A stretch of DNA of 63,312 bases, counting the filler, from Collodictyon triciliatum (taxonomy: Eukaryota): assembly GCA_043381765.1 (NCBI GenBank). It is 5 parts of 5 records of this genome, joined end to end, with 100 filler letters (N's around TTAATTAATTAA, not from the genome) between each part and the next. Parts side by side here need not be neighbours in the genome. Positions count along the whole stretch, not along the records: positions 60,547 to 63,312 come from JBHJMP010001879.1; 4 more parts are not named here. One strand, 5' to 3'. Below the pieces are notes generated by a model. The model saw only the letters and a program-made list of their open reading frames with translations, was not told the origin of the DNA and did no database searches. Positions within the stretch are counted from its first letter, which is position 1. Each line of letters begins with the position of its first letter. Below, piece by piece: positions 12,201 to 63,312 of the stretch. The position numbers were made by a program, and so were the translations under genes.

Positions 12201-14990
12201 TGTCTTATATAGGAAAACGGAGGCCTTATCGTCATTAAAGCAATCGCTGGATATTTTCATGTCTGCCCTGGGTGAAAATCATCCGAATGTTGTGGCCTGC
12301 AATGAGATGATTGGAGATATCAGCCATGATTTGAAGATGTATCTCTTTTTCATATATATATTGAATTGAAACAAAAATATATTTACTCGCTCATATTATC
12401 TTAGTTTTAAGGGTGCTCTGGAGGCGTATACAAAGGCGCTGGATATTCGCATGAGAACACTGGGTGAAAAGCATGCTGATTATGCGACTGCCCTTGAAAA
12501 TGTTGGCAGAACAAACTTTGAGCTTCAAAGGTGCATTTACATATTTATTAAAAAATCAAATTATTAAATTGAATATTGTAAAAAACAAACTACTCAATAC
12601 TAAATTTTAAATCAAGGTTGGACCAAGTCATTGAATACTTCCAGAAGGCTGCTATTATCAGGAAGGAGACAAATACTATAATGTCACTGAAAGATGGCCC
12701 GCAAATTGATAATGTTATCCGACTCATGAAGGATAAAAAGGAGCATGAAGCTGCCATTCAGCTTTACATTACGCTGATTCATCTATTCAGTAGACTTTTC
12801 GTCTTGGATTATCTTGGAATATGGAGCAGCTGTGAGAAAATCGATAACATTTACAAGGAACTGAAGCAACATAATGAAGCAGTGCCGTTCTGGGCTGATA
12901 TGAAAGATAGATTCGCTGATAAACTCGGATGGATTCACCCCAGAACATTGAACTCGTGCGAATACTTGTCCGTCCATTCAAAAGAAATCGGGGTCAACAA
13001 AGAGCCTGTCGAGTTTACAAGAGTCAAGGAATTCATCAGTGAAACTCTTGATGATGCAAAACTGGATGAAGAATGGAATCGTGAGCAAATCATCGCATCA
13101 TTATTCAGAATTGTCTACATGTCAAAGAAACATGAAAGCAAATCAAAGGCTGCATCTGATGCAATCACACTTTTGAATTTCATGAATGTTTTGTTTGGTG
13201 GAATGGATTTATCAAACATCAAAATTCCACATGCAAATCTCAGTAACTCAATCCTTGATGGTGCAAACCTCACTGGTGCCGACTTGGATGGTGTTGATTT
13301 CACGAATTCGATGCTTGGTGATTGCATTTTTGATAATGCAAATATGAATAATGTGAAATTCGGAATTCCTCATTATAAACTAGAAGGACATACAAATGAA
13401 GTCTGGAATGTTTGCGGTATTCAAGGGCCGAATGGCGAAAACTGGTTGGCTTCTGGAAGCAATGATAATACAATTTGTATTTGGGATGTAGCCACAGGGA
13501 ACCAACTGAGAATATTAGATGGGCATACAAGCGATGTCTGGAGTATCTGCAGTATTCAAGGACTGAATGGTGAAAACTGGTTGGCTTCTGGAGGCTGGGA
13601 TAAAACAATACGTATTTGGGATGTAGCCACAGGGAACCAACTGAGAATATTGGAAGAACATGCAACTGATATCTGGAGTGTTTGCCGTATTCAAGGACCG
13701 AATGGTGAAAATTGGTTGGCTTCTGGAGGTGGCGACAACACAATACGTATTTGGGATGTGGCCACAGGAAACCAAATCAAAACATTGAAAGGACATATGG
13801 GTGTTGTCAATAGCATTTGCAGTATTCAAGGGCCGAATGGCGAGAATTGGCTGGCTTCTGGAAGTGGTGATAAAACAATAAGTGTTTGGGATGTATCCAC
13901 AGGAAACCAAATTAAAATATTAAAAGGGCATGTCAAAGATGTCATTAGTATTTGCAGTCTTCAAGGACCGAATGGCGAAAATTGGTTGGCTTCTGGAAGT
14001 GGTGATAAAACAATACGTGTTTGGGATGTAGTTTCAGGAAATCTAATCAAAATATTCGAAGGGCATACAAATGATGTTATGAGTGTCTGTAGCATTCAAG
14101 GACCGAATGGTGAAAAGTGGCTGGCTTCTGGAAGTAATGATAAAACAATATGTATTTGGGATGCAACCACTGGAAACCAAATTAAAACTTTAGAAGGTCA
14201 TGAAAAACCAGTCATGAATGTTGGTATTATTAAAGGATCGAATGGTGAACATTGGCTGGCTTCTGGGAGTGAAGATAATAAAATACGTCTTTGGGATATG
14301 GCCACAAATACCCTAATCAAAACGTTAGAAAGACATATAGAGCGTATCACTAGTGTTTGTAGTATTCAAGGACCGAATGGTGAAAATTGGTTGGCTTCTG
14401 GAAGTGATGCTAAAACGATACGTATCTGGGATGTAGCCACAGGAAACCAAACACACAGCCTGCAAAAATCGGAAGTTACATTCGATGAGAAGAAACATTT
14501 GGTAAAGAAAGAAAATCCAGATGAAATAATTGCAGTATTCAACAGAACAAGTGATGCGATGAACATGATTGATACCAACAGAGTCCAAGATGCAAGAACA
14601 GTCCAGATTTCCAGCCCAGGAGAGTTGGAAGGCGGAAACATCCAAATCAGAAATGTCGCAAGATTGAGTCAATTCAACAAAACCCTTCTATTTTCAATCG
14701 GTGCTGTTTCTTTCGATGCGGACTTTGCTGCCTATTGTGAGCAGGGTGAAATCACAGCGTTTCAAGCTCAAATAATGGCTGAGTGCTATGAGAATGGATG
14801 GGGTGTTGAGAAGGACAGCGATAAATCAGCTGAGTGGAGGCAGATTGCAGAGAACTTTGAAAATGATAATGATAGTGATGAAGAATACGAAGACGAACAC
14901 GAGGATGGAGATGGAAATGAAGATGGAAATGACGATGGAGATGACGATGGAGATGACGATGGAGATGACGATGGAGATGATCTGATCTGA
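6297..14990 (+). CDS. NLR/STAND-like protein: calponin-homology-like - DUF4062 - NACHT/NPHP3-like P-loop NTPase - TPR repeats - pentapeptide repeats - 8x WD40 - single Sel1-like motif - acidic tail
   Basis: ATG at 6297. CH-like segment AVLEWVNHHL..NIRDDFMDGFFLAMLIDAVTG. DUF4062 segment IRVFLSSTFRDMQQERD..FIDLRWGL..PYFVCSLGARYGWIP. Walker A AESGIGKSS (about 8847-8873), Walker B FVFLIDAINQ (about 9378-9407) and GHPLYLRIILDEVRVFG. TPR exons span 11299-12530. The terminal exon 12617-14990 is the 790-aa ORF, joined in phase 2. Confidence 0.88.
13380..14459 (+). repeat. Eight tandem 135-nt (45-aa) highly similar WD40 repeats
   Basis: Consensus L.GH...V.S(V/I)CSIQGPNGENWLASGS.DKTIRIWDVATGNQIK.; exact 135-nt period from 13380 to 14459. 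Confidence 0.97.
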
Positions 14991-15310: not shown

Positions 15311-15410
15311 NNNNNNNNNNNNNNNNNNNNNNNNNNNNNNNNNNNNNNNNNNNNTTAATTAATTAANNNNNNNNNNNNNNNNNNNNNNNNNNNNNNNNNN
15401 NNNNNNNNNN
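15311..15410. other. Artificial assembly spacer (44 N + TTAATTAATTAA + 44 N)
   Basis: The identical 100-nt structure recurs at 28152-28251, 37634-37733 and 60447-60546; the core has stop codons in all six frames. Confidence 0.97.
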
Positions 15411-28151: not shown

Positions 28152-28251
28152 NNNNNNNNNNNNNNNNNNNNNNNNNNNNNNNNNNNNNNNNNNNNTTAAT
28201 TAATTAANNNNNNNNNNNNNNNNNNNNNNNNNNNNNNNNNNNNNNNNNNNN
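28152..28251. other. Artificial assembly spacer
   Basis: 44 N + TTAATTAATTAA + 44 N. Confidence 0.97.
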
Positions 28252-37633: not shown

Positions 37634-37733
37634 NNNNNNNNNNNNNNNNNNNNNNNNNNNNNNNNNNNNNNNNNNNNTTAATTAATTAANNNNNNNNNNN
37701 NNNNNNNNNNNNNNNNNNNNNNNNNNNNNNNNN
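37634..37733. other. Artificial assembly spacer
   Basis: 44 N + TTAATTAATTAA + 44 N. Confidence 0.97.
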
Positions 37734-57448: not shown

Positions 57449-60058
57449 TCACATGGACACTAGCTTGCGCAAGGCGTCGTCATCGCCCTGGTCGCAGGCG
57501 CGCAGATACCAGTGGGCAGCGGCGGAGGCAGAGACGGGGACGTCGTGGCCGGCCGCGTGGGCCTCGCCGAGGGCGCGCTGGGAAGGGAGATACCCGTTTG
57601 TGGCGGCCATGAGGCACCAGCGCAGCGACTCGCGGGCGGACTCGACCGTCCAGCGGTTGCGGTAGCAGACATGGAGGTTGCTCTGCGCGACGACGCTGCC
57701 CTGCTCGGCGGCCTTGTGGAACCAGCGGATGCCCTCGCCGACGTTGCGCTCCGTGCCCTGGCCGCGCGCGTAGTAGAAGCCGAGGGTGGACTGGGCGGAC
57801 GCGTAGCCCTGCTCGGCAGACCGCAGATACCAGCGGAAGGCCTCCTCCATGTTCTGCTCCACGCCGTGCCCGTTGCCGTAGCACATCCCGAGGTTGCACT
57901 GCGCGTACATGTAGCCCTTCTCAGCCGCGCGCCGGTACCACTCGAAGGACTTGGCCTGGTCCTTGGGCACGCCCACGCCGTTCCAGTACATGTTGCCGAT
58001 GCTGTTTTGCGCGTGCAGGTTCTGCTGCTGCGCCGCGCGCATGTACCAGTCGAACGCCTGCGCGTAGTCCTGCCCGACGCCCCGCCCGTGCTCGTACGAG
58101 TACGCAAGATTGTCCTGCGCGCTGGCGTTGCCCTTCTCCGCCGCCGTCCGGAACCAGTGCACCGCCTGCGCGTAGTCCTGCCCGACGCCCCGCCCGTTCT
58201 CGAAGCACAGCCCCACGTTGTTCTGCGCGCTCGCGTTGCCCTTCTCCGCCGCGCGCATGTAGTGCGCAAACGCCTGCCCGTAGTCCTGCCCGACGCCCCG
58301 CCCGTGCTCGAAGCAGATCCCCACGTTGTTGAGCGCGTAGATGCTCCCGTTCTCTGCCGCGCGCATGTACCACCCAAACGCCTGCGCATAGTCCTGCCCG
58401 ACGCCGTTGCCCTTCTCGTAGCAGATCCCCAGGTTGTTTTGCGCGTACGAGCTCCCTTGCTCCGCGGCCTTGCGGTACCAGTGGATGGCCTGCGCGTAGT
58501 CCTGCCCAACGCCTCGTCCGTGCTCGAAGCATGACCCCAGGTTGTTTTGCCCATCCTCGTTGCCTTGCTCCGCGGCCTTGAGATACCACTGAGCCGCCTG
58601 TGCGTAGTCCTGCCCAACGCCCCGCCCGTTCTCGTAGCAGATCCCCACGTTGTAGTACGCACTCGTGTTCTCCTGCAGCGCAGCCTTCAGGAACCAGTGG
58701 AAGCCTTGCTCATAGTCCAGCTCCACCCCGACCCCGTTGTAGTAGCACGTCCCGAGATAGTTTTGCGCGTTGGCGCTGCCTTTGACCACCGCGCGCCGGT
58801 ACCACAGGATGGCCTGCTTGTCGTCCTTGGGCACGCCTTGGCCCTTTTCGTAGCACAGTCCCAGATTGCTCTGCGCGTACGGATCTTGCGCGTCGGCCGC
58901 CTGCCGGTACCAGTAGATGGCCTGCGACAGATCCTGCGGCGTGCCTTCGCCCTTCTCGTAGCAGATCGCAAGGTTGTTTTGTGCAGTGATGTGTCCTTTC
59001 TTTGCCGCCCGGGTGAAAAAATCAAACGCCTTGCCGTAGTTGCGCGCCACTCCTTGTCCGTTCCAGTAGCAGATACCAATCGTGCGCTCCGCATAGATGT
59101 TCCCCAAGTGTGCGGACACAAGATAGAACCGGGCCGCATCCGCATGCTTCTCCTCCAGCAGGTCCAGCAGATAGCCGGTGAGAAAGTGGCATTGAATCGC
59201 CATTTGGTCTTCCAGGCTCCCTTCTGCATCAGAGCCCGGTACTGTGCCTGAAGAGCTACCCTGCAAAGTGTCGCTTTTAGTCGTGTGAGACTCCTTTTCT
59301 AGTCTGGCAGGCTTTCCAGGCAGCGGACGAGCGTCATATCCGGCCTGCACATTCGATAATGTCTGGCCTGGTGGCTCGTCACTGGTTGGCCGTGCAGCCA
59401 CTGGGGCTGAAGAGTCGAGATTTTCCTTGGCAGAGAAGCAAACTAGTGGTGTCTGCAATGAGTCTGACGCAAGCTTTGTCTTGGCCTTCGCAAGTCGCGG
59501 CGATTGGGCCAAGGGCGATTCCTGCTGCAGACGAAAGCCCGACTCTGCATCCCCCTCAACAGCAGCAGACGGTACAGAGGCTTCATCATCATGATCATCA
59601 CCTATGTTTGCTGCGTCGTTGCTTGCAAGAGTCTCGTCCTCAGAAGGCGGCTCCACTTGGGTCTTTGGCGTGTTTTCTACTGTGTGCTCGGGCCCCAACT
59701 CAGCAGCAACCTCGGCCAGCAGCGTCCCAGAAAGAAGCTCCGGACGCAGAGGAAACTTTGCACAGAGCTTTGCGAGGGCATTGCGTGAGCGGACCAGTGC
59801 GTGGGCCGAGCAGGAGCGCGCTTTGTTGTACTGCTCGTCTACAAGATCTTTTTCTCGCGGGTGGTCGATCAGGGCCGGGCGGTAAAAGTAGATTGCGCGC
59901 AGGCAAAGCATGGCCACCACAAAGTCCGGCTCCAGGCTCAGCAGCGTCTCGAGATCCTTGTGGGCCTCCTCCGCGCGATACTGCGACATGCAAAGCACCG
60001 CGGATTCGAGCAGTGCGGTGATTCGTGGATCGGGCGCTGCGGAGGCTTTGCTGTCCAT
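57449..60058 (-). CDS. Intronless Sel1-like repeat protein (869 aa, about 15 SLRs) with an N-terminal TPR-like segment
   Basis: Uninterrupted ORF. 36-aa units AQNNLG.CYE.G.GV.QDY.QA..WY..AAEQG begin at 59092. Confidence 0.95.
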   Translation of the reverse strand: MDSKASAAPDPRITALLESAVLCMSQYRAEEAHKDLETLLSLEPDFVVAMLCLRAIYFYRPALIDHPREKDLVDEQYNKARSCSAHALVRSRNALAKLCAKFPLRPELLSGTLLAEVAAELGPEHTVENTPKTQVEPPSEDETLASNDAANIGDDHDDEASVPSAAVEGDAESGFRLQQESPLAQSPRLAKAKTKLASDSLQTPLVCFSAKENLDSSAPVAARPTSDEPPGQTLSNVQAGYDARPLPGKPARLEKESHTTKSDTLQGSSSGTVPGSDAEGSLEDQMAIQCHFLTGYLLDLLEEKHADAARFYLVSAHLGNIYAERTIGICYWNGQGVARNYGKAFDFFTRAAKKGHITAQNNLAICYEKGEGTPQDLSQAIYWYRQAADAQDPYAQSNLGLCYEKGQGVPKDDKQAILWYRRAVVKGSANAQNYLGTCYYNGVGVELDYEQGFHWFLKAALQENTSAYYNVGICYENGRGVGQDYAQAAQWYLKAAEQGNEDGQNNLGSCFEHGRGVGQDYAQAIHWYRKAAEQGSSYAQNNLGICYEKGNGVGQDYAQAFGWYMRAAENGSIYALNNVGICFEHGRGVGQDYGQAFAHYMRAAEKGNASAQNNVGLCFENGRGVGQDYAQAVHWFRTAAEKGNASAQDNLAYSYEHGRGVGQDYAQAFDWYMRAAQQQNLHAQNSIGNMYWNGVGVPKDQAKSFEWYRRAAEKGYMYAQCNLGMCYGNGHGVEQNMEEAFRWYLRSAEQGYASAQSTLGFYYARGQGTERNVGEGIRWFHKAAEQGSVVAQSNLHVCYRNRWTVESARESLRWCLMAATNGYLPSQRALGEAHAAGHDVPVSASAAAHWYLRACDQGDDDALRKLVSM

Positions 60059-60446: not shown

Positions 60447-60546
60447 NNNNNNNNNNNNNNNNNNNNNNNNNNNNNNNNNNNNNNNNNNNNTTAATTAATT
60501 AANNNNNNNNNNNNNNNNNNNNNNNNNNNNNNNNNNNNNNNNNNNN
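60447..60546. other. Artificial assembly spacer
   Basis: 44 N + TTAATTAATTAA + 44 N. Confidence 0.97.
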
Positions 60547-61187
60547 TTATGTTTTTTTATGTTTTTTTATGTTTTTTTATGTTTTTTTATGTTTTTTTAT
60601 GTTTTTTCAATAAAACCGCAAGATCTGTTGCCTTTATTCCTAGATTAACTATGCATGTCAGTATTCACAAGTACTCTATGTTGTTCACACAAACTCAAGC
60701 AGGGACAGCGAGAAGAGGGTGCAAAAGGAGTAATGCCTTGCAAAAAGTTCCCCGCCCCTTTAAAAAAAAACTGGACGATTAAGCGCCTAGCAAGGAGAGA
60801 GAGAAAGCTAGCGAGAAAATACGCATGTGCGCGCGTACGAGAGAACCAAAGGTGGGTGGGTTAGTGGGATGGGTGCGTCTGTGCGTTTGTGAGTTTGTGA
60901 GTTTGTGAGTTTGGCCTTGGCTGTGTGACTGGAATGGCTATGAGGGGTAGGAATGGGACAGAGGCAGAGAGAAGAGGCGATCCGTAAATGTTGCGGTCAA
61001 AACTGCAGAGGGTGCAAGGAACCGAATCAGTGTGGCAAACGCACAACAGAGGAAGGGAGGAAGGGAGGAAGGGTTGCTTTGGGTCTGCAAGTTTATGCAT
61101 AAGAGAAAGAGAAAGCGAAGGAGAAAGCGAAAGCAAAGGAGAGAGCGAAAGCAAAAGAGAAAGCAAAAGAGAAAGCAAAGGGGTGCG

Positions 61188-62942
61188 CTACGAGCGCGGG
61201 AGGGACGGGGCGGAGAGGGAGGGGCGGGGCGGGGAGTTTGCGAGGAGGGCGTCGCGTGCGCGTGCGAGTGCGCGGATGTCGAAGGGGGTGAGGTCGGGCA
61301 GGGCGCGGGGCGGGAGGGCGGGGTCTGCGAGGTCGAGGTCGAGGAAGTCCTTGCCGGAGAGCCTGTGGTGGAGGAGGAGGGCGGTGGTGCGGTCGGAGAG
61401 GTGCATGTAGAAGAGGAGGGCGCGCAGCTCCTGGGGCCGCAGGGAGGCGAGGGCGGCGGGGCTGACGCGGGTGGTCATGAGGGAGTTGAGGGCCAGGTAG
61501 TCCTTGATGGAGCGGAAGACGGGCTGCTCGGCGATGAAGAGCGCCTCCACCTCGCGCAGGGCGGGGCGCGCCTTGGGGTTGTCGGCCATGCCGCGCTTGA
61601 TCATCTCCTGGATGGCCACGGGGCAGCGCGCAGGGGGCGCCCGCGACGCCTTGGCCGGCACCGCGCCGCTCAGCATCTCGCACACCAGCGCCAGCAGCGA
61701 GAAGACGTCGCTCTTTTCGCCCTGGTGCCCGCGCCGGTCGTCCAGCTCGGGGCCGTGGTAGTCGCCGTCGCCGTGGCTGTGGCTGTGGCTGTGGCTGTGG
61801 CTGTGGCCTTCGCCGTCGCTGCTCTGCTTGAGGCGGTGCAGCCCCACGTCCGTCAGCTTGCACACGCCGCGCACCACGAGGACGGTCGTTGCGCGCACGT
61901 TGCGGTGGGCCACGGGCGGGCGCTGGGCGTACATGTAGGCGAGGCCCTTGCAGATGTCCAGGCCGCAGCGCAGGGCGTCGAGCAGCGGCAGGCCCTTGAT
62001 GATGGTCTGGCGCGCAATCAGGGCCCGCAGCGTCTCGCCGGGCGCGTCCTCGCTCACCACGGCAAGGTCCGTGTCCACGATGCAGACGCCGTAGAGCTGG
62101 ACGATGTTGGGGTGCGTCAGGCGCTGCAGCTGCTGCCCCTCGTGCACCGCCGCCTCCACGTCCACCCCGGGGTCCTGCAGCCCCGCAATCGCCACGCGCC
62201 GCACGCTGACCGCCCGCTCCAGCCACGTCCCGCGCCACACGCGCCCGTTGCCGCTGCCCCCGCCGCTGCCCCCGCCGCTGCCCTCGGCCGTCAGCCGCAG
62301 ATCCGCCGCCCGCAGCTGCACGCGCTGGCCCACGCCGACCGCCCCGCCGCCCTCCGCCCCCGCGCCTGCCCCCGCATCCGCATCCCCCGCCGTCTCGTCC
62401 GTCAGGAAGCGGATCCACATGCGCAGCGCCCCGGCGTGCTCCTCGCGCGTGGTCGACGGCGGCTGCGCACGCACCAGCTCCTCCATGTGCCGCAGATCCG
62501 CCAGCCGCAGCCGTGCCGCCTCTGCGCCGTCCAGCGTCTGCCGCGCAGCCTGCAGCTCCTCGCCGAAGTGGTGCACCTGCTGCACCAGCGGACACAGCCA
62601 GTCCTCGCCGATCCCCAGCCCCACCACGCCCTCCAGCAGCGCCCCCGTCCCTGTCCCCGTCCCCGTCCCTGCTCCCGTCCCTCCTCCGCCCTCCCCGTCC
62701 GCCCCTGCCTTGGGCCCCCGGCACAGCTCCCCGATCCGCACCGCGTGCAGCAGCGTCTGGTTCAGCCGCGTCAGCGTCACCCGCACCCCCTCGTTCGTCT
62801 GCGTCCGCTGCCGCTCCAGCGCCTCCCTCAGTCCCCCCACCTGCCCCACAAGATACTTGATCTGCTGCTTCAGGAATACCGCCTGCTCGCTTGCTCGTTC
62901 CAGCTGCTCGATCAGGTCCAGTCCAAAGCTTGCAGAGTCCAT
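61188..62942 (-). CDS. Intronless TKL-type pseudokinase with an N-terminal MLKL/MCAfunc-like helical domain and a C-terminal SAM-like domain (584 aa from the ATG at 62942)
   Basis: Kinase subdomains GRVWRGTW, VSVRR, LTHPNIVQLYG, GLAYMY..PPVAHRNVRATTVLV, KLTDVGL, YHGPEL, KSDVFSL and NPKARP. The VAIK, HRD and DFG residues are substituted. The terminal domain calls are by resemblance only. Confidence 0.85.
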   Translation of the reverse strand: MDSASFGLDLIEQLERASEQAVFLKQQIKYLVGQVGGLREALERQRTQTNEGVRVTLTRLNQTLLHAVRIGELCRGPKAGADGEGGGGTGAGTGTGTGTGALLEGVVGLGIGEDWLCPLVQQVHHFGEELQAARQTLDGAEAARLRLADLRHMEELVRAQPPSTTREEHAGALRMWIRFLTDETAGDADAGAGAGAEGGGAVGVGQRVQLRAADLRLTAEGSGGGSGGGSGNGRVWRGTWLERAVSVRRVAIAGLQDPGVDVEAAVHEGQQLQRLTHPNIVQLYGVCIVDTDLAVVSEDAPGETLRALIARQTIIKGLPLLDALRCGLDICKGLAYMYAQRPPVAHRNVRATTVLVVRGVCKLTDVGLHRLKQSSDGEGHSHSHSHSHSHGDGDYHGPELDDRRGHQGEKSDVFSLLALVCEMLSGAVPAKASRAPPARCPVAIQEMIKRGMADNPKARPALREVEALFIAEQPVFRSIKDYLALNSLMTTRVSPAALASLRPQELRALLFYMHLSDRTTALLLHHRLSGKDFLDLDLADPALPPRALPDLTPFDIRALARARDALLANSPPRPSLSAPSLPRS

Positions 62943-63312
62943 CCTCCCTTCTTCCTTTTCTTTTTCTTTTCCTCCTGCAATACGATCCAAGCGAAAGAAA
63001 AGGCTGTCAAGATATTGTGTATTCAAGAACGTGGGAAAGAAAAAAGCAGTGTTTTCTCTTTTCTTTTTTTTGCTCTTCTTTCCTGCTGCTAGGACTCCTG
63101 TCGCGTGGTCTCAGCCAAGACTTGCTCACCAGGCTTCCACCACTCAAAAAGAGTAGAGGAAGGCGGTGGAGCGGGTGTCAAAGGCGCAGGAAAAAATAGC
63201 AAACAAAAAAAAAAAAAAAAAAAAGGTAGTTTTTTTTTTTAAAAAAAATAAAAAAAATTACAAAAAAAAGAAAAAAAAAAAAAAAAAAAACAAACCAGAA
63301 AAAAAAAAAAAA

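Follow-up and report, generated by a model that had tools for sequence, protein, structure and literature searches.

We analysed a window of 63,312 nucleotides of DNA from Collodictyon triciliatum (assembly GCA_043381765.1), the last piece of which (60547..63312, 2766 bp, record JBHJMP010001879.1) is bounded by an N/TTAATTAATTAA linker and carries a single gene, encoding a pseudokinase with a possible MLKL-like layout. According to the list of open reading frames (ORFs) and the translation, the gene is a complete intronless coding sequence on the minus strand (61188..62942, ATG at 62942, stop codon at 61188-61190) for a protein of 584 amino acids, here termed P0001; all features of P0001 given below lie on the same strand. 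Its start is supported by an alignment with the homolog P0074 from Diphylleia rotans, which begins (MD..) at the same position. From N- to C-terminus, P0001 appears to comprise a helical domain of ~160 residues followed by two brace-like helices, a TKL pseudokinase that might act as a switch, and a SAM-like tail, and we see about an even chance that these three parts represent an independently assembled MLKL-like architecture.

The reading frame of P0001 shows GC contents of 0.76/0.49/0.93 at the first, second, and third codon positions (GC1/2/3) and is embedded in flanks of 0.44 GC (3′) and 0.35 GC (5′). This strong GC coding signature also accounts for long spurious ORFs seen in other frames. 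Pieces of the gene were recovered in other public sequencing runs, and freshwater-metagenome contigs carry short identical pieces of it (27 of 343 records listed for these comparisons). Over 962 nt in run X1 and 658 nt in run X2, coding pieces had no gaps and carried 9 and 3 differences, respectively, whereas the 3′ flank had 9 differences and 13 gaps over 357 nt in X1 and 12 differences and 4 gaps over 254 nt in X2, corresponding to ~99% identity of the coding pieces in other samples compared to ~6% divergence in the 3′ flank. Positions are listed for three coding differences, two of them synonymous and one A458S. Because the matched sequencing runs are contigs, they are silent on transcription in Collodictyon. 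Since the three-part layout is kept in Diphylleia rotans, the coding sequence is conserved next to a variable flank, and the 584-codon frame is intact, P0001 is, as judged from these sequence comparisons, the product of a real freshwater-protist gene maintained by selection. The contigs from other runs break at coding microsatellites, namely at (His-Ser)5 (61748-61822), Gly/Ser (62240-62282), and Gly/Thr (~62645-62682), and the low-complexity inserts at these breaks may be length-polymorphic between strains. Moreover, a 163-nt contig of run X1 (record 8) aligns with the initial 119 nt of the coding sequence (window 62824-62944); its 42 letters off the window may reflect a divergent or differently joined 5′ end.

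Residues 228-470 (61533..62261) were assigned to a TKL-type pseudokinase domain based on Pfam, PDB matches, and a motif table. The Pfam models PK_Tyr_Ser-Thr (PF07714; residues 232-466, E 1.3e-23, 84 bits, cut-off 23.1) and Pkinase (PF00069; E 3.2e-19, 69.8 bits, cut-off 31.7) both scored above their gathering thresholds, placing the domain in the protein kinase superfamily as a TKL-like member, and the closest PDB relatives of P0001 were the TKL-group and tyrosine kinases MLK4, TNNI3K, MLK1, Src, BIK1, and CTR1. For the motif table, P0001 was aligned with 48 other kinases (alignment A5). In the beta3 strand (VSVRR, residues 245-249; 62196..62210), R248 replaces the ATP-anchoring Lys, which is K in all 47 aligned kinases. 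The catalytic loop reads HRNVRATT (residues 346-353; 61884..61907), so that the catalytic Asp is replaced by N348 (D in 45 of 48 kinases), the catalytic-loop Lys by R350 (K in 45/48), and the catalytic-loop Asn by T353 (N in 46/48). Parts of the Gly-rich loop remain (G228, G233), its second Gly being S230 (G in 43 of 46 kinases), and the alphaC Glu (E268), the DFG Asp (D365), P398 and E399 of the APE motif, D412, and R459 are retained. If loss of at least one of the beta3 Lys, the catalytic Asp, and the DFG Asp defines a pseudokinase, P0001 belongs to this class, and its kinase domain is, by its residues, catalytically dead, as it has lost the Lys, Asp, and Asn on which phosphoryl transfer depends. 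The absence of catalytic residues had been proposed in a first-pass annotation of this DNA, which was also right about motif and coordinates of both VSVRR (for VAIK) and DVG (for DFG). It had correctly read HRNVRATT in place of HRD..N as well, but the interval given for it, 61899-61907, spans HRN only, the full motif extending over 61884-61907.

The DFG motif, found in 262 of 349 kinase domains, is DVG in P0001 (D365, V366, G367; 61842..61850), with the metal-binding Asp kept. DVG was present in 11 of the 349 domains (178 fetched proteins), including P0074 and eight kinases with intact K/HRD/N. Because kinases with these residues intact also carry DVG, it represents a subfamily trait and not decay. 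The eight kinases (P0045, P0049, P0079, P0080, P0093, P0112, P0134, and P0160) form an apparently active TKL subfamily with HRD[IV]KSPN and AK[ILV]ADVG motifs, and three of them (P0049, P0079, and P0112) have an N-terminal LEM domain. The activation loop of P0001 (residues 365-399; 61746-61850) is Ser-rich, with the sequence DVGLHRLKQSSDGEG(HS)5..., and its translation contains a (His-Ser)5 repeat (61773..61805). Upstream of the kinase domain, the translation shows a Gly/Ala-rich low-complexity linker (residues 186-227; 62262..62387).

P0074, a 563-amino-acid protein from a Diphylleia rotans transcript (EukProt EP00002) with 28% identity to P0001, was the sole protein found with the full three-part layout. 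BLASTP aligned both proteins with an E-value of 5e-25 over residues 262-536, from the kinase into the tail; the N-termini are colinear in the alignment from M1, and the alignment extends through the tail. Since P0074 comes from a transcriptome, this homolog is transcribed. P0001 and P0074 have in common an R at the beta3 Lys position, CKLxDVG, PE, and DPKARP. P0074 is more degenerate than P0001, with FAP where HRD is expected and without a Gly-rich loop; because the loop and the whole HRD motif are missing, catalysis is not conserved in the family. In a FastTree phylogeny of 346 kinase domains (3 of 349 were dropped for >35% gaps; MLKL not included), P0001 and P0074 were sisters (support 0.937) and their next relative was P0141 (support 0.921), likewise from Diphylleia rotans (EukProt). 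In P0141, the VAVK, HRD, and DFG motifs are intact and the kinase domain is followed by a helical module, one TPR, and seven Sel1 repeats, whereas the N-terminal helical domain is missing. This unusual combination of kinase and repeats could represent a sensor kinase.

For the exhaustive phmmer search, the best 150 of 43,542 matches were considered, so that weaker family members may be hidden. A word-indexed search with whole P0001 or alignment A1 yielded, among the matches listed, only generic, mostly bacterial kinases, and one with the P0074 tail region returned P0074 alone. Scanning metagenomes with alignment A1 gave three loci that match the kinase core only, a hidden Markov model of the N-terminal part found only P0001 and P0074 among 179 fetched proteins, and tblastn detected no paralog of P0001 or P0074 in the window.

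The N-terminal residues 1-160 (62463..62942) were delimited as a candidate MLKL_N/HeLo-like bundle based on low-pLDDT helices, ESM, and profile matches. The N-terminal ~190 residues were helical in both AlphaFold runs, with low confidence (pLDDT, i.e. predicted local distance difference test, of 37 and 55); the AlphaFold2 full-length run without alignment was the one with a mean of 37, and none of the predictions yielded a usable fold. Both models also predicted, again with low confidence, two helices at residues ~141-158 and 165-185 (62388..62522), which by position may be analogous to the MLKL brace. A Gly/Thr/Ala low-complexity loop (residues 75-100; 62643..62720) is absent in P0074 (alignment A2), is modelled with pLDDT <50, and gave rise to spurious PDB matches.

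Three methods gave weak but specific signals for MLKL. In the ESM Atlas, ranks 1-3 for whole P0001 were chordate MLKL clusters (0.97-0.96, 221-223 of 256 features in common), and residues 1-190 alone retrieved MCAfunc, MLKL_N, RPW8, DUF7792, and PUB10_N clusters (0.84-0.76). A profile built from the two N-termini (A2) and searched against 177,635 PDB sequences at E<=10 gave two matches, both of them human MLKL N-terminal domains, which were ungapped and in register (profile 10-58 and 12-58 versus chain 11-59 and 15-61, E 0.84 and 0.96). Lastly, the Pfam model MLKL_N (PF22215) matched residues 10-122 of P0074 over positions 7-128 of 142 (E 0.059, 13.3 bits, cut-off 27).

Several observations weigh against an MLKL-like reading. 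N-terminal homology to MLKL stays below every significance cut-off: ESM Atlas scores <0.9, such as those for residues 1-190, are leads only, and PF22215 ranked fourth of 12 models on P0074, behind three unrelated helical families that are probably noise (Golgin_A5, FAM186A-B_N, and SbcD_C). The N-terminus of P0001 alone had no Pfam MLKL_N match at E<=10, and residues 1-160 searched against the PDB gave no MLKL match and instead artefacts driven by the Gly loop, with ATP synthase subunit b at E 0.059. Residues 1-161 of P0074 alone retrieved from the PDB only the ROCK1 coiled coil (E 0.34), and the AlphaFold models consist of long uninterrupted helices of low confidence, with coiled coils as VIA best matches. 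The pseudokinase domain, too, is not most similar to MLKL: its nearest relatives in the tree, built without MLKL, are P0074 and P0141, and no MLKL chain is among the best 60 of 790 PDB matches to whole P0001. A complex prediction of residues 1-190 with the pseudokinase (225-475), for which alignments were not used, scored 0.01 (mark 0.34) and speaks neither for nor against. Because the hypothesis preceded the searches and the three methods converge on one uncommon family, we consider an MLKL_N/HeLo-type domain at the N-terminus of P0001 slightly the better bet. The MLKL/MCAfunc four-helix bundle suggested in the first-pass annotation has in its favour the predicted helices and the weak ESM, A2-profile, and P0074 PF22215 signals, and against it that P0001 itself lacks an MLKL_N match and that the models show long helices of low confidence.

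Downstream of the kinase, residues 471-568 are conserved between P0001 and P0074. They comprise a helical linker (residues 471-502; 61437..61532; alignments A1 and A3) and a putative SAM-like helical module (residues 503-568; 61239..61436), the latter delimited by the P0141 alignment and profile matches. Direct searches did not retrieve SAM: neither the P0001 nor the P0074 tail had a Pfam SAM match (PF00536 and relatives) at E<=10, and the two-sequence tail profile matched best in the PDB to the C-terminal domain of KaiA (E 0.0076), probably a helical chance match. Models of the tail structure did not attain usable confidence. The link to SAM runs via P0141. A single BLASTP segment connects residues 272-563 of P0001 to residues 109-443 of P0141, taking in the P0141 post-kinase module, and this module has SAM_1 as its top Pfam match (E 0.074) and the ANKS3 SAM domain as its sole PDB match (E 0.44). 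In addition, a three-sequence tail profile had 2dkz_A as its top PDB match (E 0.057, 63 of 78 positions), an entry that the search tool does not name as such and that we take to be a SAM domain. Based on this connection through Diphylleia, a SAM-like tail in P0001 is plausible, with a chance modestly above even. Of the resemblance to SAM suggested before, the quoted strings are present at residues 503-568, and the weak signals come via P0141, with no direct Pfam SAM match. Together, placement of the N-terminal domain in the MLKL_N/HeLo/MCAfunc helical-bundle superfamily and a SAM-like tail are moderately likely on sequence grounds.

The strongest competitor is a scaffold pseudokinase with a plain coiled-coil N-terminus, which would dimerise through its long helices and SAM-like tail and regulate or localise an active kinase paralog allosterically, without being a membrane effector. 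The MLKL-like signals would then be noise from helical composition combined with the generic look of helices plus a TKL pseudokinase. The long uninterrupted helices of the AlphaFold models with their coiled-coil matches, the missing MLKL_N match for the P0001 N-terminus alone, the coiled-coil families ranking above MLKL_N on P0074, and the nearest kinase relative P0141 being an ordinary active TKL kinase all agree with this scenario. However, the models that suggest long helices are of low confidence, the three methods agree on one rare family and not on generic coiled coils, and the PDB profile search matched MLKL only, in N-terminal register. Overall, we regard the coiled-coil scaffold as possible, though clearly short of an even chance.

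Two further explanations concern the kinase domain itself. That P0001 is an atypical kinase, still active through Arg248 and an unconventional catalytic loop, could be argued from the retained G228, G233, alphaC Glu, and DFG Asp and from the occurrence of DVG in otherwise intact kinases, but the catalytic Asp, catalytic-loop Lys, and Asn are all replaced together and the homolog P0074 has neither the Gly-rich loop nor the HRD motif, which leaves this option very improbable. A decaying, non-functional kinase copy, which the initial annotation had named as the outcome that would overturn its view if the locus were untranscribed and evolved neutrally, would fit the lost catalytic residues, the low-complexity inserts at residues 75-100, 186-227, and 380-390, and the fact that no RNA-type run is among the sequencing runs on record as holding the gene. 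Yet the frame is intact over 584 codons with a GC3 of 0.93, the 962- and 658-nt coding pieces are gap-free next to a gap-rich flank, and the structural residues E268, D365, P398, E399, D412, and R459 are kept; moreover, all three parts are conserved at 28% identity in Diphylleia rotans, where the homolog is transcribed. Neutral decay is not what these data describe, and we give it hardly any credence, even less than residual catalysis.

The MLKL-like reading of P0001, partly supported and resting on suggestive evidence, can be compared with known systems. P0001 resembles animal MLKL in the order of its parts (N-terminal helical domain, two predicted helices at the brace position, TKL-group pseudokinase), in the MLKL clusters at ESM ranks 1-3, and in an N-terminal profile that matches MLKL only in the PDB. 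In contrast to animal MLKL, its kinase domain is not closest to MLKL by the PDB comparison, it degenerates differently, with R for K, HRN for HRD, and DVG for DFG, and it adds a helical SAM-like tail and low-complexity inserts. MLKL keeps the beta3 Lys and shows other changes instead. The layout of P0074 agrees with that of P0001 in the helical N-terminus, a pseudokinase with beta3 R and DVG, and a conserved post-kinase linker and tail, whereas P0074 shares 28% identity and lacks the Gly-rich loop, the HRD motif, and the Gly/Thr loop insert. P0141 has the nearest kinase domain in the tree outside this pair and a post-kinase module that aligns with the P0001 tail, but is catalytically intact by its motifs, has no N-terminal helical domain, and ends in a long TPR/Sel1 C-terminus. 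The comparison with fungal HELL-domain fusions to kinases or pseudokinases draws on ESM rank 4, a cluster of Basidiomycota kinases, 23% of whose members have MLKL_N; no direct sequence match was found, and a SAM-like tail is not described for the fungal proteins. The plant proteins AtMLKL1-3 combine a HeLo-type bundle, a brace, a pseudokinase, and an extra C-terminal region (10.1101/681015), and plant MCAfunc/MLKL_N clusters were the best ESM neighbours of the P0001 N-terminal part. Unlike the helical SAM-like tail of P0001, the plant C-terminal extension is serine-rich and without a known fold (10.1101/681015); no sequence-level orthology between the plant proteins and P0001 was found. The authors of that study judged the plant MLKL architecture likely convergent (10.1101/681015).

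Because the kinase tree groups P0001 with P0141 and MLKL is missing from the 60 best PDB matches, we favour independent assembly: the architecture most likely arose inside the lineage, out of a local kinase-SAM family, and was not inherited from an MLKL ancestor. Of the two origins offered by the first-pass annotation, convergence is therefore preferred, while an ancient necroptosis effector sits poorly with a kinase domain whose place in the tree is next to an active kinase specific to this lineage. Modelled on animal and plant MLKLs (10.1101/681015, PMC12881547), P0001 could use its pseudokinase as a conformational switch that restrains the N-terminal effector bundle. In the simplest case, an active kinase would give the release signal by phosphorylating the Ser-rich activation loop, upon which the freed N-terminal domain might oligomerise and attack membranes or exert another effector action. 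The SAM-like tail might mediate self-association, or recruitment to an active paralog of the kinase + SAM-like + TPR/Sel1 type, as in P0141. Such a paralog could be the upstream sensor kinase, with repeats that could sense a ligand. Membrane disruption and SAM-driven oligomerisation are thus suggested here by analogy. A more far-reaching version, which we think unlikely in its entirety, is that the Diphylleia-related lineage has its own RIPK3-MLKL-like death or immunity switch, in which an executioner (MLKL_N-like bundle, pseudokinase, and SAM) and an active kinase-SAM-TPR/Sel1 sensor paralog would be joined by SAM-SAM contacts instead of RHIM or kinase docking.

Executioners made of a bundle plus a pseudokinase are described for animals, plants, and fungi (10.1101/681015, PMC12881547). 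A Diamond survey of 67 protists with human sequences reported no homologs of necroptosis regulators (PMC7539657). In our searches of the literature on protist MLKL-like proteins and on MLKL-like/HeLo evolution, supplements not covered, no description of an MLKL-like protein from a protist was found. If the N-terminus of P0001 is a true MLKL_N/HeLo bundle, P0001 and its Diphylleia homolog would show this architecture in free-living unicellular eukaryotes, extended by a SAM-like module for assembly and accompanied by a candidate for the upstream sensor kinase. Regulated cell death or antiviral defence in protists would then become accessible to experiment. If the two-component switch holds as well, the bundle-plus-pseudokinase executioner would be a recurrent invention, with a fourth eukaryotic lineage and a unicellular case. 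Should the N-terminus be only a coiled coil, the gene would be that of an ordinary scaffold pseudokinase.

Regarding the remainder of the window, the stretch consists of five contigs joined by four linkers of N44+TTAATTAATTAA+N44, a six-frame stop spacer (15311-15410, 28152-28251, 37634-37733, and 60447-60546). Gene order across these joints is therefore biologically meaningless, and neither a Sel1-repeat gene at 57449-60058 nor anything upstream of it is a genomic neighbour of the pseudokinase gene. The contig of the pseudokinase gene starts with a (TTATGTTTTT)n repeat (60547-60606) and has a purine-rich microsatellite (GAGAAAGC-like; 61100-61187) directly past the stop codon; both kinds of tract are common repeats, because their summed depth was very high in all four runs. 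GC3 was 0.35 for a WD40-repeat ORF (12681-14990, plus strand), 0.78 for the Sel1 ORF (57449-60058, minus strand), and 0.93 for the pseudokinase gene, a sharp contrast in codon usage that may indicate that the contigs were joined from more than one organism, or from strongly differing compartments of a genome. The Sel1 ORF, on the preceding contig, is GC-rich and intronless and encodes 869 amino acids with 14 Sel1 repeats (Pfam 5.4e-138). Its protein resembles P0141 in the Sel1 region only at the generic level of such repeats (~30%).

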